Assembly: GCA_963771465.1 (NCBI GenBank)
Contig: CAVYTU010000014.1
Span: forward strand, 352,001-416,000
Direction: 5' to 3'
DNA length: 64,000 bases
Source: an uncultured delta proteobacterium
GTDB taxonomy: Bacteria; Desulfobacterota; Binatia; UBA9968
Below are positions 5,789 to 13,834 of the stretch, in pieces. Below the pieces are notes generated by a model. The model was not told the DNA's origin, ran no database searches, and saw only the letters and a list, made by a program, of their open reading frames with translations. A program made the position numbers and the translations under genes. The first letter of the stretch is position 1. Each line of letters begins with the position of its first letter.

Positions 5789-6967
5789 ATGGCGTTAATC
5801 GATAACCTAAACACGATTCGCATCGATCATATCGGCAGCCTCGTTCGTCCGGCAAGACTCAAAGACGTCTTCGCCCACTCCGATCGCGGCCAAGCAGCGA
5901 AGCAGGAATTGTCGCAGGCGCAAGACGAAGCGATCCGCGATGTCATTGCCAAGCAAGAGGCTCACGGCTTCCCGGTCGTCACCGACGGTGAGTTTCGCCG
6001 CCACAGCTTCCAAGAAAGCTTTTCCGAGTGCGTCACCGGATTTGATGTGCCAAAGAATATCGGCCTCTACTATGAAAAGCGCGATTTGAATGAGAACCCG
6101 CTCGAGCGCGCCGAGCAAAACTTCGAAGAAGCCGGCCCAGCGATCATCACCCGGCGCGGCGCGTTCGAACGCTTGAAACTCGTACGCAACCTGACGCTAG
6201 AAGAATACCGCTACGCAGCGAGCGTCGCCAAAGTTCCGGCCAAAGTCACGCTGCTTGGTCCCGATCGTATCGCCCAGCGCTTCAAGTGGGAAGCGTCGTT
6301 GAATGTTTACAAAGGCCTCGACGATTTTGTCGAACATCTCGTCGTAATCGAGCGGCAGATCATCGCGGAATTGGTAAAAGCCGGCTGCAAGTACATTCAA
6401 ATCGATGCCCCCGGTTACACCGCCTACGTCGATAAAGTTTCGCTGGAAAGAATGCGCTCCCGTGGCGAAGATCCCGAGCGCAATCTCCAACGCTCCATCG
6501 ACGCGGACAATGCCATAATCGCAGGCTTCTCCGATGTGACCTTCGGCATCCATATTTGCCGCGGCAACGCCAGAACCATCGATCCCCAAACCGGCAAACT
6601 CGTCCCCCAATGGCATCGCGAAGGCTCCTATGACGCCATCGCCGAAAAACTTTTTAACACACTCAAGCACCAACGTTTGCTGCTGGAATACGACAGCGAC
6701 CGCGCCGGCAGTTTTGAGCCGCTGCGTCTGGTTCCAAAAGATAAAATTGTCGTCCTCGGTTTGGTCTCGACCAAGAACTCCGACATGGAAAGCGTCGACG
6801 CTTTAAAGCGCCGCATCGATCAAGCCAGCAAATATCTGCCCGTCAATCAACTCGCGTTGAGTCCGCAATGTGGCTTCGGCGGCATTGATTCGAAAGTGTT
6901 GAGCGAAGATGAGATGTGGCGAAAGCTGGATACGATCGTCGAGACGGTAAAGCAGGTGTGGAATTGA
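5789..6967 (+). CDS. Cobalamin-independent methionine synthase II family protein (single C-terminal barrel)
   Basis: DHIGSL, VTDGEFRR, YIQIDAP; Zn ligands HICRGN, LLEYD, SPQCGF; 392 aa. Confidence 0.85.
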   Translation: MALIDNLNTIRIDHIGSLVRPARLKDVFAHSDRGQAAKQELSQAQDEAIRDVIAKQEAHGFPVVTDGEFRRHSFQESFSECVTGFDVPKNIGLYYEKRDLNENPLERAEQNFEEAGPAIITRRGAFERLKLVRNLTLEEYRYAASVAKVPAKVTLLGPDRIAQRFKWEASLNVYKGLDDFVEHLVVIERQIIAELVKAGCKYIQIDAPGYTAYVDKVSLERMRSRGEDPERNLQRSIDADNAIIAGFSDVTFGIHICRGNARTIDPQTGKLVPQWHREGSYDAIAEKLFNTLKHQRLLLEYDSDRAGSFEPLRLVPKDKIVVLGLVSTKNSDMESVDALKRRIDQASKYLPVNQLALSPQCGFGGIDSKVLSEDEMWRKLDTIVETVKQVWN

Positions 6968-6997
6968 CGACGTCGAACGCGGCCTCGATGCCGCAAA

Positions 6998-7299
6998 TTA
7001 GCAACAGCCTGGTGGAGTAGGAATCTGCGTTTTGCTGGCGTATCCAATGACAAAAAAAAGCTCGGCAAAACGTTACAAAGTAGCTGGACTAAATAGACGC
7101 GACGTTGAGATGATGAGAGAGAGTTGACAAAGAGATTCGCAAATAGCGAGAAGCCAGTTAGTAAAATAACCCCGATCGAGAATATTCCCCAAAAGAATAA
7201 AATCGACGGTGAGATATTCCCGAACATTCCCGAAAATAATAATGAACCAAGAATACCGAACGCACATAATGCGTATTCATGAACGGTTATCTTCTGCAC
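6998..7299 (-). CDS. Small AT-rich 3-TM membrane protein, probably frameshifted at an A8 run
   Basis: Three hydrophobic segments; adding one base at the A8 run 7052-7059 gives ...NVLPSFFFVIGYASKTQIPTPPGCC* ending at 6998 and removes the overlap with the convergent gene. Confidence 0.45.
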
Positions 7300-7321
7300 A
7301 TTTCTAATTCCAACCCTGTTT

Positions 7322-7604
7322 TCAACTATCCGGCCTCGCGCTACTCAACCACTCCTCATGCACATCGACCCAGATCGTATCCGTATCATGGCAGGTCGAC
7401 ACTTCGCTCAAGATCGAATTTAACAGTGTAGAGCGGCTTATGGATGCCGCGGTGATCTCTGATATTTTCGAGGACTCCGTGGACTAGGCCGATGACGCCG
7501 CGTTTGCCGCGTATATAACGTGGCGTGCGCGGGTTGCCGGTGGGATTTTCGTGGGCGACCATGACGGCGTCGCCGATTTTGTATTTGCTAATCGTGTCGC
7601 TCAT
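7322..7604 (-). CDS. Nitrile hydratase beta C-terminal SH3-like domain protein (thiocyanate hydrolase alpha-like), with one extra base
   Basis: YKIGDAVMV, GNPRTPRYIRGKRGVI, PLYTVKFDL; the expected tail DTIWVDVHEEWL continues in another frame after an extra base at about 7409-7412. Confidence 0.8.
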
Positions 7605-7612
7605 AACAATTC

Positions 7613-8686
7613 TCAATCGGGCCGCACGCGCGGCATCTCAGCTTCGACGTGGGCGGCTTCTCGCTCGCGTAACTGCGAGGGTTCCAACGCGTAGCCCGCG
7701 CCAATCAAACTGTCGACGGTGACGAGCTTGGCCAATTCTGGTTCAGACATTCCTTCGGTGCCTTCGGGACGCTGCGGCAGGACGAAGTAGCGCACGTCGG
7801 AGGTGCTGTCCCACACTTGCAGCTCTTTGCCGGCGGGAATTTCTAGCTGAAACATGTCTCTGACGCAGGCGCGTGGGTTCTGCACGATGTTGGTCCGATA
7901 GCTTTCATGCTTGTACCACCACGGCGTGTCGCCGAGGATGTCATACGGATAACAGGAGCATAAGGTGCAGACGATGACATTGTGCAGCTTGTCGGTGTTC
8001 TCGACCACGACGAGTTTGCCGACTTTGCCTTGATGCACGCCCATATCTCTGAGCGCTTCCCGGCCAGTCGTAAGCAACGCCTGTTTAAAATCTGGATCGG
8101 TCCACGCCTTGGCAACGATCACGCCGCCGGACCAGGGACGCTCCTGGTGTAATTGTTTCCAGCGCTGTGCTAAATCGTCGCGCGTCGCCCAACCGCGCCT
8201 GATCAACGCCTGGACAAACACTTCGAGCAACTCCTGGTAATCTTTTAGATCTTGCTCGACGCCCGCCATGCGCTCTGCGAGCGCGCCGTGGTGTTCTTTC
8301 TTTTTGATCTTGAAAAAATCGTCGTAGTCGCCACGCTCCTTGCGGTTGTCCTCGGTCACCATGTCCATGCCTTCGACCGTGCGCGCGGAAACCAAAGCGA
8401 TGCCTTTGACGTATTCGTCAAGCCACTCTTCGAGATAGCGCACGCGCGCTTCGATGTTTTTCCCCTGGGGTCTAGCGATCTTAAAGAAGTGATCTTTCTT
8501 TTTAAGCGCGCTGCGCACCTTGAGCAGATCGTAAAACGTCACTACATTACGCCGCAGCAAGTAGAAAATACGCGGCTCGAAGCGTTTGGCGCGGTAATAT
8601 TCCAAATCTTCTTCGACGGCTTTGATATGCGCGAGGTAATCGTGCATATGGCCTTCGAACGGTTTGTGTCCGTGCTTTCCCGACAT
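7613..8686 (-). CDS. Nitrile hydratase alpha / thiocyanate hydrolase gamma-like subunit (Co-type) with long N-terminal extension
   Basis: VAKAWTDPDFK, VCTLCSCYP metal motif, VWDSTSDVRYFVLPQRPEGTEG; 357 aa versus about 200 aa for typical alpha subunits. Confidence 0.9.
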   Translation of the reverse strand: MSGKHGHKPFEGHMHDYLAHIKAVEEDLEYYRAKRFEPRIFYLLRRNVVTFYDLLKVRSALKKKDHFFKIARPQGKNIEARVRYLEEWLDEYVKGIALVSARTVEGMDMVTEDNRKERGDYDDFFKIKKKEHHGALAERMAGVEQDLKDYQELLEVFVQALIRRGWATRDDLAQRWKQLHQERPWSGGVIVAKAWTDPDFKQALLTTGREALRDMGVHQGKVGKLVVVENTDKLHNVIVCTLCSCYPYDILGDTPWWYKHESYRTNIVQNPRACVRDMFQLEIPAGKELQVWDSTSDVRYFVLPQRPEGTEGMSEPELAKLVTVDSLIGAGYALEPSQLREREAAHVEAEMPRVRPD

Positions 8687-8710
8687 CGGATTTCCTCCAA
8701 ATATATCCCG

Positions 8711-10426
8711 TCAATGGGTGTCGAATATTTCTTGATATTGCTTGAGCTTCGCTTGTGTCGCGTCCGTTTCCGCCTGGATCGGATTGGCCGGATCGAGCGC
8801 CGGCGGCAAGCAACCGAGCTTCATCAAGCACGCCATCAATAACAGCCGCGCTTTGGTCGCCGTCAGATTGCTACCGGCGATCGCCAGCGGATCGCGCGTC
8901 GGATCAACGAAGCCGCCGGCATTGCCGCGGCCGACTTTGACCACAGGCATACCGCTAAACGTCGCGCGTTTGAGCGCCGCATCGACGGCATTGCTCATGG
9001 CGCCGAAGGGCGCCGAGCCTTCAGCGACAAAGCCGGCGAGCGGCGCGGCGCGCAAATTATTTTCGATGCGCGCGAGTATATCGACTTCGCTGTTGGCGTC
9101 GCCAGAAGTATCCTCAGGCAAGTAGCGCGCATGTTTGACGATTGTCACCTTTGGAATGGCGGTGGCCAGCAGATTCCCGTCGGCGCCTTTGACCGCCACA
9201 GCGATCGCCCCAGCCTTTGACTCTTGGACCCTTGAACCTTGAACGCTGCTCGGTAGCTGCGTCACATTGACGGCAGAATCGTAGGTATGCCGTTTGATCG
9301 TCTTGAACGAAAACTGCGGCGCACCCGGATGACCTATTCTGCCGATGATGCCGCCATGGCCGCCGGTAGCCACATAGCCGCCGGGGCGCGCGTCGGCTTT
9401 TTGCACGTCGCGCGAAGTAAATATCTGCTCGTCGAGTATGGCAACGGCGCCGATGCAATCCCGGCCGTTTTCATCGGCCCAAATTTTCGATGCGATGTAG
9501 TCGACGGAGTCGACGATGTTGCGATCGCCGTCGTTGCCGATGGCGCCGTGGGGGCGCTGCGAGGAGTTGCCGGCAATCGGCACCGTTGTGTCGATCAGGA
9601 GATTCAGCCAATACGTGGTCTCCTCCACAAACGGGCTACCTTCGAGCCAGATCGCGCCGAGATATTTGCCGCTGCCGAGTGCGCGCTGGACGACGTTAGT
9701 GAGGCGCGCCAGCGCCGCCATCGGCGGCTCCTTGCGAAGATATCCGGGACGATAGGGGAAAAAATCCGTGCCGCGAACTTCCGGTGCGATATCGCCGTCA
9801 CCGATATCGGTGCGCTCGCCCGCGCTTCTCCCCTTTGTATAACCGCCCGACGGCAGAGCGCGATAGAAATCGAAATCGGCCTTTGCGGTTAGCAAACAGC
9901 CCACCCCTTCGTCGGAAATCCCCAAGCGGTCGATCTCTTCGAATAAACGCGAGCCGTCGGGGAAAAACGGCACCCGGGTCAACTCTGCCGGCGCATTTTT
10001 TTCCGCCCCGTCGGTCTCCCAAGGCTGGCCGCTGGCTTGGCGCGCCATATAGGGCAACGGATACAAACCATCTTCAGGCTGGAGCGTGATTTCATAAACG
10101 GGTTTGTCTTGTGGACCGGTTGGCTCTTTGTGAAAAGCGCCGGTTGAATCGAGATAGCCGTCAGGCGGCGCGTAGAGCTCGGCGTGATCCTTCTCCAGCG
10201 GATGCGCGCTGAACCGTTCGACGTAAATCGTCACCGGCGCCGCTAATCGCTGCGCGCGCAGCACATCGAAACGCAGCGGCGTGCCATCTTTGTTGGTGCG
10301 AGCGGGCAATCCATATTTCGCGCGCGCCTTGTTGCTCGTCACCAGTGGCTCGCTGTTTTGAATCGTCGCCGTCGGTCCGGAAAAGACCGCGATGCACGGT
10401 TTCGCGTTGCTCCGCGTATCAGCCAC
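8711..10426 (-). CDS. Asparaginase/glutaminase-fold protein with large insertions
   Basis: FSGPTATI (GGTI equivalent), WLEGSPFVEETTYWL (HGTDT equivalent), SSQRP, DVQKAD, NLTATKARLLLM, YQEIFDTH. Confidence 0.75.
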   Translation of the reverse strand: MADTRSNAKPCIAVFSGPTATIQNSEPLVTSNKARAKYGLPARTNKDGTPLRFDVLRAQRLAAPVTIYVERFSAHPLEKDHAELYAPPDGYLDSTGAFHKEPTGPQDKPVYEITLQPEDGLYPLPYMARQASGQPWETDGAEKNAPAELTRVPFFPDGSRLFEEIDRLGISDEGVGCLLTAKADFDFYRALPSGGYTKGRSAGERTDIGDGDIAPEVRGTDFFPYRPGYLRKEPPMAALARLTNVVQRALGSGKYLGAIWLEGSPFVEETTYWLNLLIDTTVPIAGNSSQRPHGAIGNDGDRNIVDSVDYIASKIWADENGRDCIGAVAILDEQIFTSRDVQKADARPGGYVATGGHGGIIGRIGHPGAPQFSFKTIKRHTYDSAVNVTQLPSSVQGSRVQESKAGAIAVAVKGADGNLLATAIPKVTIVKHARYLPEDTSGDANSEVDILARIENNLRAAPLAGFVAEGSAPFGAMSNAVDAALKRATFSGMPVVKVGRGNAGGFVDPTRDPLAIAGSNLTATKARLLLMACLMKLGCLPPALDPANPIQAETDATQAKLKQYQEIFDTH

Positions 10427-10468
10427 AATGACCTCGCCGCGCTAGAATATTGAAATCGTCTATGGAAT

Positions 10469-11047
10469 TTATTTCAACTCGTACGGCAGCTGCTTCGGAC
10501 CGTAACCTTGCCAGTACTTGTTGGTCGTCGGATCGTAGCGCCCCTGGAGAAAACCGCCGGCTTTCTCAGCGCGCACGATGATCGCCACCGTCCGCTCATC
10601 GCCGCTCTCTTCGGCATGGATTGCGTAGGGCGGCACGAGATCGATTTTACCCGCGCCGACTTTGACGTTTACCGACTTGCGCACTTCAGCGTAGTCGGGT
10701 TTCGACCGGTCGTCGACCCGCTCGTAACGTGCGATCGACTCGGTGCCGTCGAGCACGCCATAGAGCGTCCAGTTGTGCGCGTGGTCGTGGATCGCGGTGC
10801 GCGTGTGCGGCGCTTTGATCAGGCCGTTGATGACAAACTTATAATCGGGATCTTCGTAGAAAAGTAAATTCTCGGCGCGCTCGGCGCCTTGAGAGCAGTC
10901 GGGCCAACGATTCGATTGTTCTTTGATCGATGGATCGGCGAGTAACTCTTGCAACAGCGGCGTCATCTTTTCCCACCGTTTGGCCGCATCTTTTTCCTCG
11001 GCGTGAAGCTGGCGCGCGGACGCGATGAATTTTTGCACGGCGGACAT
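10469..11047 (-). CDS. Cysteine dioxygenase-like cupin
   Basis: LFYEDPDYKFVIN, IHDHAHNWTLYGVLDG, AIHAE (3-His cupin); GGAGG RBS before ATG 11047. Confidence 0.75.
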   Translation of the reverse strand: MSAVQKFIASARQLHAEEKDAAKRWEKMTPLLQELLADPSIKEQSNRWPDCSQGAERAENLLFYEDPDYKFVINGLIKAPHTRTAIHDHAHNWTLYGVLDGTESIARYERVDDRSKPDYAEVRKSVNVKVGAGKIDLVPPYAIHAEESGDERTVAIIVRAEKAGGFLQGRYDPTTNKYWQGYGPKQLPYELK

Positions 11048-11222
11048 AAAATCCTCCTGACAGTACGAAGCCAATGGGTTATCGGATTATTATTCCGAGC
11101 GAGTAGTGCTCGTCAAGTCAGGTTTTGCGAGATTTCAGCTCTAAGAGTCCACGCGCCAAATCGAAAAGGCTCCGGCAGCGATCAACCGCCGGAGCCTTTT
11201 ATGAGAATGATTGAATTTCGTC

Positions 11223-12497
<1,275 letters not shown>

Positions 12498-12655: not shown

Positions 12656-13834
12656 TCAGACCCGCGCCGCCGCTTTCTTGAGATCAGCCGCTCGATCGGT
12701 CTTTTCCCAAGTAAACAAACCTTCTTCCGGCGCCCGGCCAAAGTGGCCATAGGCCGCCGTCGCACGGTAGATGGGCCGCTTCAGATCGAGGGTCTGAATG
12801 ATGCCTTTGGGGCTTAAATCGAAACTGTCCTGGACGATCTTAGCGATCTTGTCTTCGGGAATAGCCGCGGTGCCAAAGGTTTCGACGAGCACCGACACCG
12901 GCTGCGCCACGCCGATGACGTACGCAAGCTGGACTTCGCATCGCATGGCCAACTCCGCCGCAACGATATTCTTTGCGACGTAGCGCGCCATGTAGGCCGC
13001 GCTGCGATCGACCTTGGATGGATCTTTGCCGGAGAAAGCGCCGCCGCCGTGCCGACCCATGCCACCGTAGGTATCGACGATAATTTTGCGTCCCGTCAAA
13101 CCGCAATCGCCTTGCGGCCCGCCGACCACGAAACGGCCGGTTGGATTCACATGAAAGATCGTGTCTTTGTCGAGATACTCGGCCGGAATGACCGCCTTGA
13201 TGACGCCCTCAATGATCGTTTCGCGTAACTTAGCGTATTCGACATCGGCGCTGTGCTGGGTCGAGATCACGACGTTTTTGACTCTGACGGGTTTGCCGTC
13301 GCGATATTCGACGGTCACCTGTGACTTGCTATCAGGACGAAGAAAATAGGCTTCGCCGCCTTTGCGGACTTTCGCCAAATAGTGAACTAAGCTGTGCGCC
13401 ATCTGAATCGGAAACGGCATCAGTTCCGGCGTCTCGTCGCAGGCGTAGCCAAACATCATGCCCTGATCGCCGGCACCCTGTTCTTTGTGCAAGCCTTGGC
13501 CTTCGGTCACGCCCTGAGAAATATCCGGTGACTGTTGCTCGATGGCGGTGAGAATCGCGCAGGTATTGCCGTCAAATCCCATGGAGGAGTCGGTGTAACC
13601 GATCTCGCGCACGACTTCGCGAACGATATCAACATACGGGACTTTGGCACTGCTGGTAATTTCACCGGCAACCACCACCATGCCGGTTTTGGCCAAGCTC
13701 TCACAGGCCACTCGGCTGTTCGGGTCGCCGGCTAAATGAGCGTCGAGAATCGCGTCGGATACTTGGTCGCAAAGTTTGTCGGGATGACCTTCGGAAACCG
13801 ATTCGGACGTAAATAAAAAATCTTTACCAGCCAT
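12656..13834 (-). CDS. metK: S-adenosylmethionine synthetase
   Basis: [42 protein letters not shown]. Confidence 0.98.

Follow-up and report, generated by a model that had tools for sequence, protein, structure and literature searches.

Nitrile hydratases (NHases) convert nitriles to amides at a Co(III) or Fe(III) centre with Cys-sulfinate and Cys-sulfenate ligands, and their maturation normally requires an activator. Here we describe a member of this family encoded in 64,000 nucleotides of an uncultured delta proteobacterium of the Binatia (contig CAVYTU010000014.1, positions 352,001 to 416,000; this whole stretch is "the window" below, and positions are counted from its first base). On its minus strand lies a coding sequence for 357 amino acids (7616..8686, stop codon at 7613–7615), found by open reading frame (ORF) calling and a Pfam NHase_alpha match, with GGAGG 7 nt 5' of its ATG. 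We call its product long alpha. Eight bases after its stop codon starts a second gene, mini beta (7322..7604, minus strand), identified with Pfam NHase_beta_C and hhalign as the C-terminal SH3-like domain of an NHase beta subunit; its 283 nt are 93 codons, a stop and one extra base. On sequence grounds, the locus is best explained as encoding a lineage-specific two-protein member of the NHase family, made up of long alpha and a mini beta of ~93 residues that corresponds to the C-terminal SH3-like third of beta.

A long alpha subunit and a short beta partner

The NHase_alpha model (PF02979) matches residues 153–330 of long alpha over profile positions 6–183 of 184 (E = 2.2e-62, 210.1 bits, against a gathering score of 27.2). 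A profile built from 20 family members aligns residues 150–336 with residues 17–201 of the solved Co-type alpha chains, so that long alpha carries about 135–150 extra residues at its N-terminus and about 20 at its C-terminus. The catalytic domain was delimited by profile comparison with the Protein Data Bank (PDB) and by Foldseek at residues 151–336 (7679..8236, minus strand). Against the PDB, the profile matches Co-type alpha chains at E = 2.4e-77 to 1e-62, Fe-type chains at ~1e-52, and the gamma subunit of thiocyanate hydrolase (SCNase) at ~1e-46. Foldseek with the AF2 model of the full chain (predicted local distance difference test, pLDDT, 76.9; predicted template modelling score, pTM, 0.71) returned alpha and gamma chains only, at target-normalised template modelling (TM) scores of 0.72–0.77.

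Alpha subunits bind their metal through the motif C-(S/T)-L-C-S-C, and in Co-type enzymes this takes the form C-T-L-C-S-C-Y, with Thr and Tyr. A motif search places VCTLCSCY at residues 239–246 of long alpha (7949..7972, minus strand), which fits the Co-type rule, and by E-value the chain is nearer to Co-type than to Fe-type proteins. C240, C243, S244 and C245 are invariant in alignment A1, which holds 20 long-alpha family sequences with identity down to 40 %. Long alpha is a predicted Co-type-like NHase alpha domain, and a complete one. Thus far the ORF, the Pfam match and the position of the motif agree with an earlier reading of the same DNA from its letters alone (the sequence-only reading), which had described an NHase alpha-like protein with an intact VCTLCSCY and about 150 additional N-terminal residues. 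The C-terminal end, PRVRPD (residues 350–357; 7616–7640, minus strand), is kept in the close clade and absent from distant members, and is modelled at pLDDT <50.

Mini beta matches NHase_beta_C (PF02211) with E = 1.2e-11 and 45.3 bits, while the undamaged protein of a relative reaches 56 bits over profile positions 7–97 of 98 and aligns with residues 134–225 of a 227-residue canonical beta (hhalign probability 98.7 %). The NCBIfam cut-off for the beta-subunit equivalog was missed by mini beta (49 versus 152). An invariant Arg in its GNPRTP motif falls, in the hhalign alignment, on the Arg of the canonical beta GHTR motif, which we take to be the second active-site Arg of beta. DNA alignment and three-frame translation locate a single-base insertion at 7410..7412 (minus strand) that shifts the frame of the window's copy; the base is extra relative to all four of the aligned relatives, and the +1 frame beyond it encodes the conserved tail SEVSTCHDTDTIWVDVHEEWLSSARPDS. 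Either the assembly is wrong at this base, or the gene was inactivated very recently. That only the C-terminal SH3 part of beta is encoded, by a gene in need of repair, had been claimed before, and both the Pfam match and the frameshift bear this out. Elsewhere the gene is regularly intact: it is an ATG-initiated ORF of 89–103 residues in 38 of the 41 related loci that reach it, with an open frame and a non-ATG start in the remaining three, and it begins 5–17 nt after the alpha stop codon in 36 of those 38.

The best 120 database matches to long alpha are 344–395 residues long and 80–90 % identical to it; 7995 of the 8000 scored candidates lie at E<=1e-3. Where these best 120 bear a name it is "nitrile hydratase (subunit alpha)", and they come mostly from metagenome-assembled genomes (MAGs) of Candidatus Binatia or "Deltaproteobacteria". 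The extension alone, searched against 1.84 billion representatives, finds 102 clusters at E<=1e-3 and 71 at E<=1e-10; eight of the 14 proteins fetched from these clusters (332–372 residues) are long-alpha proteins at 31–52 % identity. Two proteins with multi-stretch matches to the extension (P0189 and P0211) turned out on inspection to be unrelated repeat proteins and were set aside. Some near-identical homologues (P0001, P0006 and others), though not all, carry the Pfam label PF27793.1; this uneven distribution points to a borderline match rather than to a family model that covers the extension.

In a tree of the catalytic domain, 20 long-alpha proteins and 18 canonical alpha subunits are split by one branch (support 100/99; the tree is unrooted and built without Fe-type or SCNase sequences), which is consistent with a single origin of long alpha. 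A genome scan recovered 46 related long-alpha loci, and by homology the long-alpha/mini-beta pair forms a conserved family that occurs chiefly in MAGs of Candidatus Binatia. The same scan supplied canonical loci from which profiles of the beta N-terminal domain (beta-N) and of the accessory protein were built. Run with hmmsearch over a six-frame translation of the window plus the 46 loci (512,988 bases, 10,409 pieces), they gave best E-values of 2.4 and 2.3, respectively, and a full-beta profile matched the mini-beta genes alone (~1e-14). No beta, accessory protein or CobW-type activator was found with Pfam among the 63 ORFs of the window. The sequence-only reading had noted the lack of a beta N-domain and of an activator nearby, and this is upheld by the Pfam scan for the window and by hmmsearch for the window and the 46 loci. 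A reduction in the opposite direction is seen in a Latescibacterota locus (L047:6046-7014), where a normal alpha of 195 residues is followed by a beta-N/accessory-like protein of 121 residues with a His-rich tail, and where no beta gene was seen by eye among the ORFs within ~2.5 kb.

Structure, repeats and origin of the extension

The extension comprises residues 1–150 (8237..8686, minus strand), as delimited by AF2 secondary structure and the cluster search. Helices are predicted at residues 16–44, 50–59, 77–104 and 135–162, the last continuing into the canonical alpha N-terminal helix, and the loop at 101–123 is of low confidence (pLDDT <50). In 10-residue blocks over residues 11–100, pLDDT is 68–90 in the context of the full protein and 57–80 when the extension is modelled alone (65 for that model as a whole). 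Pfam returned nothing but noise for residues 1–170 at E<=10 (PPR_3, E = 0.16), and the ESM Atlas gave no usable match to residues 1–150.

Within and beyond this region, hhalign with shuffled controls delimits three repeat units on the minus strand: R1 (residues 13–64; 8495..8650), R2 (65–121; 8324..8494) and R3 (122–185; 8132..8323), the last running on into the canonical alpha N-terminal helix-turn-helix. Compared as slices of the family alignment, R2 and R3 match with a probability of 86 % (E = 5.4e-6), R1 and R3 with 16 % (E = 1.6e-3, 51 columns), and R1 and R2 with 7 % (E = 4.9e-3); each of the three scores is higher than those of all 55 column-shuffled controls. The repeats exceed chance. 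Three related helices (AHIKAVEEDLEYY at residues 19–31, ARVRYLEEWLDEY at 80–92 and ERMAGVEQDLKDY at 138–150), two DxFFKI motifs (DHFFKI at 65–70, and DDFFKI within RKERGDYDDFFKI at 115–127) and two segments of the form L[LI]RR...T..DL (LLRRNVVTFYDL at 43–54 and LIRRGWATRDDL at 161–172) had been picked out in the sequence-only reading, and every one of them was located.

Conservation across these repeats is uneven. The first DxFFKI is confined to the close clade (at least 76 % identity), while YD.FF of the second is family-wide, and the segment that contains it, RKERGDYDDFFKI (8306..8344, minus strand), shows the strongest conservation of any extension motif in alignment A1, with R115, E117, G119, Y121, D122 and F125 invariant. 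D27, Y30, K34, R35, R45, L85 and E86 are likewise invariant there. The fragment alignment A3, which is noisier, has K34, R35, E37, R45, L54, R81 and R115 as its invariant positions. Close to the N-terminus, HMHD at residues 13–16 (8639..8650, minus strand) forms with H20 the pattern H-M-H-D-x3-H, whose five named residues (H13, M14, H15, D16 and H20) each reach at least 90 % conservation in A1, and which we infer to be a candidate metal-binding site.

The canonical alpha N-terminal helix-turn-helix (LEVFVQALIRRGWATRDDL) lies within R3, and R1 aligns to exactly that segment (FEPRIFYLLRRNVVTFYDL). This alignment argues for a tandem duplication of alpha's own N-terminal arm, which is the best-supported origin of the extension as far as sequence comparison can tell. 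The sequence-only reading had instead linked the extension to beta-N through the likeness of YYRAKRF..LLRRNVVT to a beta helix (YY..W..L..KG.IT). This pairing is indeed the top local hhalign alignment of the extension with beta-N, but it is insignificant, and the same segment aligns better to alpha's own N-terminal helix, as part of the R1–R3 match given above.

Gene neighbourhood and relation to known nitrile hydratases

In coding-strand order, the genes at the locus are metK, ahcY, a cupin of 201 residues, an asparaginase-family protein of 571 residues, long alpha and mini beta, with gaps of 42, 24 and 8 nt from the cupin gene onward. The asparaginase-family protein (8711..10426, minus strand) carries Pfam Asparaginase N and C domains and is divergent: it matches PDB asparaginases at E = 9e-11 from about residue 240 on, its first ~235 residues match no family, and it reads EGSPF where L-asparaginases have HGTDT. 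The cupin gene (10469..11074, minus strand), first of the putative operon, encodes a thiol-dioxygenase-like protein by PDB profile matches, to mercaptosuccinate dioxygenase (8vni) at E = 4e-8 and to cysteine and 3-mercaptopropionate dioxygenases at 1e-3 to 1.5e-2. Three of its His residues align with thiol-dioxygenase metal ligands; no Pfam or NCBIfam family matched it. In 42 of the 43 loci that could be assessed, the asparaginase-like gene lies upstream of long alpha; 37 of these also carry the cupin gene, and the remaining five end inside the asparaginase-like gene. Installation of the Cys-sulfinate ligand has so far been regarded as autocatalytic or activator-assisted, and a thiol dioxygenase-like cupin beside an enzyme that needs such a ligand is suggestive.

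Just upstream of the putative operon lie ahcY (11223–12491) and metK (12656–13834), both on the minus strand, and a MetE-like methionine synthase of 392 residues (5789–6967, plus strand; below the NCBIfam cut-offs) converges on it from the other side; in most related loci the NHase module is bordered by homocysteine/S-adenosylmethionine-cycle genes. Rfam returned no family at gathering score over the whole window (1–64000), and so no riboswitch was found upstream of metK, of ahcY or of the NHase operon. Promoter and terminator counts over 6800–11400 were not above those in shuffled sequence, and one promoter-like site matching at 10 of 12 positions directly precedes the cupin gene. A minus-strand ORF of 150 residues (6847–7299), with a hydrophobic N-terminal half, runs antisense into the 3' end of the MetE-like gene. 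A comparable protein was found only in locus L032 (37 % identity, 121 residues), and the ORF is probably a small membrane protein or no gene.

Compared with the alpha2beta2 Co-type NHases of Pseudonocardia thermophila (1IRE) and Pseudomonas putida (3QXE), the alpha domain of long alpha is 41–49 % identical, with target-normalised TM scores of 0.72–0.74; the C-T-L-C-S-C-Y ligand motif is shared, and their beta C-terminal domain (beta-C) is homologous to mini beta, with the GHTR Arg kept. The differences are the ~135–150 residues added to alpha, the loss from mini beta of the first ~130 residues of beta, and that no activator gene was found nearby. SCNase (alpha, beta, gamma) belongs to the same superfamily and also has its beta split in two, and its gamma subunit is homologous to the long-alpha domain, whereas an equivalent of its beta-N half was not found at long-alpha loci. 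Co-type activators, or self-subunit-swapping chaperones (P14K, NhlE), are small helical proteins that act on alpha and resemble beta-N; none was found at long-alpha loci, and this suggests that their role may have been taken over.

Three-subunit NHases with a split beta include the toyocamycin NHase ToyJKL. In another, AnhD/AnhE/AnhA of Streptomyces canus, a stand-alone beta-C likewise sits beside alpha and there is no separate activator (PMC7329996); the same paper describes a separate beta-N protein, AnhD, as needed for activity and maturation, whereas at long-alpha loci no beta-N homologue was found and alpha is extended. A further locus of the three-subunit type was met in a Hyphomicrobiaceae genome (L062:5289-6600), where a beta N-half of 110 residues and an overlapping C-half ORF precede an alpha with a His/Asp-rich N-terminus. 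The fused beta-alpha NHases of Monosiga brevicollis and other eukaryotes also have extra sequence N-terminal to alpha and no known activator (PMC2603476, PMC7193024). In those proteins a complete beta subunit precedes alpha and is connected to it through a His linker, whereas the long-alpha extension is not beta-homologous and beta-C is a separate gene.

None of the six NHase gene organisations that the available text of a 2020 review (PMC7193024) describes combines an extended alpha with beta-C only. The sequence-only reading had proposed a new subunit architecture, and its retention in 46 loci, outside those six organisations, speaks for that proposal. A full-text literature search (subscription papers and bioRxiv supplements lay outside it) yielded nothing on nitrile hydratase together with Binatia or Binatota, and nothing else relevant came up. 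The architecture appears to be undescribed and uncharacterised, the proteins themselves being already in databases under a generic name. Long alpha and mini beta, as predicted proteins, are a real new variant within the NHase family.

Possible roles of the extension

The complex was modelled with ESMFold2 from the window's long alpha and the mini beta of locus L002, since the insertion disrupts the copy in the window. Placed on the alpha domain, mini beta scores 0.82, against 0.53 for the best control; of the solved complexes, 116 of 157 attained the mark used, as did two of 215 mismatched pairs. The runs share at least 69 % of their contacts, with a partner pLDDT of at least 79. Confident contacts link mini-beta residues 26–28 and 30 (PRTP.Y) and 73–82 with alpha residues 221–225, 240–241, 267–271 and 287–297, and mini beta is thus modelled as seated on the alpha domain beside the Cys cluster. 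As alpha/beta complexes have already been solved, this result shows a resemblance to them and may reflect memorisation by the model.

The NHase metal site lies at the alpha/beta interface, as stated in PMC11672702, and PMC7193024 describes betaArg56 as essential in an Fe-type NHase. For the three-subunit enzyme of S. canus, Table 2 of PMC7329996 gives 4.17 % activity for alpha with beta-C alone and 0 for alpha alone. We lean, if only slightly, towards a takeover of the structural role of beta-N by the duplicated helical arm, perhaps together with its chaperone role. The arm would pack on the alpha domain at the usual position of beta-N and close the substrate pocket, with the invariant R35, R45, R115, Y30 and Y121 supplying contacts that are made elsewhere by beta-N residues. 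The H-M-H-D-x3-H N-terminus may aid metal loading, which, if so, would explain the missing activator. The assembled enzyme would hydrate a nitrile or a related substrate with a C–N triple bond to the amide, and the asparaginase-like amidohydrolase, if co-transcribed, may hydrolyse that amide.

Several results weigh against this interpretation. Homology gives it no support: hhalign probabilities for the extension are 0.45 % against beta-N and 0.94 % against full beta (E = 0.06–0.13), and 0.14 % against two accessory proteins, while the positive control, beta-N against an accessory protein, reaches 98.2 %. With all comparisons of the extension below 1 %, a descent of the extension from the beta N-domain is unsupported, and the link to beta-N drawn from YYRAKRF..LLRRNVVT falls with it. 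Foldseek with the extension alone (input model at pLDDT 65) gave no match at E<=1e-3, and hence no matching solved fold, and no NHase chain was among the 50 matches listed. A true substitute for beta-N would be expected to contact the beta-C domain, and no residue of 1–150 is in the confident mini-beta interface (where residues that are not named are uncertain rather than absent). The most conserved motif, residues 115–127, is modelled as a loop at pLDDT <50. The search for missing genes extended ~6 kb to each side in relatives and across the 64 kb of the window, so that a beta-N may lie elsewhere in the genome. Long alpha also misses the NCBIfam cut-off for the NHase alpha equivalog (TIGR01323; 205.3 versus 249.85 bits) as well as that for the SCNase gamma subunit (TIGR03887; 145.9 versus 291.45 bits), which makes it a divergent member of the superfamily. 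As for the coupling to cupin and asparaginase-like protein, the loci are closely related (76–92 % identity) and their synteny is therefore weak evidence; in locus L026, the pair stands among other genes without either partner, which points to long alpha and mini beta as the core unit.

An unlikely but serious alternative is that the extension is a built-in maturation module, a cis-acting equivalent of the activators or self-subunit-swapping chaperones, whose His-rich N-terminus hands the metal to the Cys cluster and which lies outside the finished active site. The near-invariance of H13-M14-H15-D16 and H20 would suit such a role, as would the absence of any activator gene found in the window or the 46 loci. 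Canonical alpha genes that lack the extension (L060, L062) have His-rich N-termini instead, and AnhD, the beta-N piece of the three-subunit enzyme, also serves as a metal chaperone (PMC7329996). The hhalign comparison with the accessory proteins speaks against a maturation module, however, and the strongest conservation, at residues 115–127, is far from the His motif. Maturational and structural roles of the extension may also coexist.

We think it improbable that the extension is a peripheral coiled coil that serves oligomerisation, filament formation or regulation, with the function of beta-N dispensable or supplied from elsewhere. The long amphipathic helices predicted for it, its weak Pfam similarities, all to coiled-coil families (APG6_N, LIP-1; E = 0.007–0.08), and its absence from the confident mini-beta interface agree with a coiled coil. 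However, specific contacts are suggested by a conserved loop motif and by invariant Arg, Tyr, Asp and Phe residues that fall outside heptad positions, the 513 kb searched around the 47 copies yielded no beta-N, and the full chain, at the pTM given above, models the extension more confidently in context than alone.

The most ambitious version of the takeover by the arm strikes us as rather far-fetched. It would have a self-sufficient NHase with the beta-N half rebuilt from a triplicated N-terminal arm, H-M-H-D-x3-H as a built-in cobalt chaperone, the cupin as a dedicated maturase that installs the Cys-sulfinate, and an amino-acid nitrile as substrate (for example beta-cyanoalanine or gamma-cyano-alpha-aminobutyrate), the resulting amide (Asn or Gln) passing to the asparaginase-like enzyme.

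There is also little likelihood that the module is decaying in this genome through a real frameshift that truncates mini beta before its interface strand and leaves long alpha without function: the extra base, relative to all four relatives, is outside any long homopolymer and would delete the main interface strand (the lost tail, residues 66–93, includes the most confident contacts at 73–82), but long alpha itself is undamaged, with 90 % identity to its relatives, and past the insertion the conserved tail can still be read in the shifted frame with no further damage. In three MAG loci (L030, L036 and L038), the long-alpha alignments are split or shortened (for example, a match end at 7072 bases and partial tblastn segments), suggesting single-base frameshifts similar to that in mini beta and assembly error as a common cause.

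NHases are industrial catalysts for the production of acrylamide and nicotinamide. The long-alpha/mini-beta variant is widespread in soil bacteria, and its thiol dioxygenase-like and asparaginase-like partners hint at a physiological nitrile pathway in the Binatia, an uncultured soil lineage for which none was found described in the literature searched. The pair allows the installation of the metal and of the oxidised cysteines to be tested directly, and may reveal a new assembly route for an industrially used metal site. It represents a natural and abundant family without a beta N-domain or an activator nearby; if a duplicated piece of alpha is indeed the replacement, this family would indicate what share of beta is indispensable and would provide a simpler, two-part scaffold for engineering.

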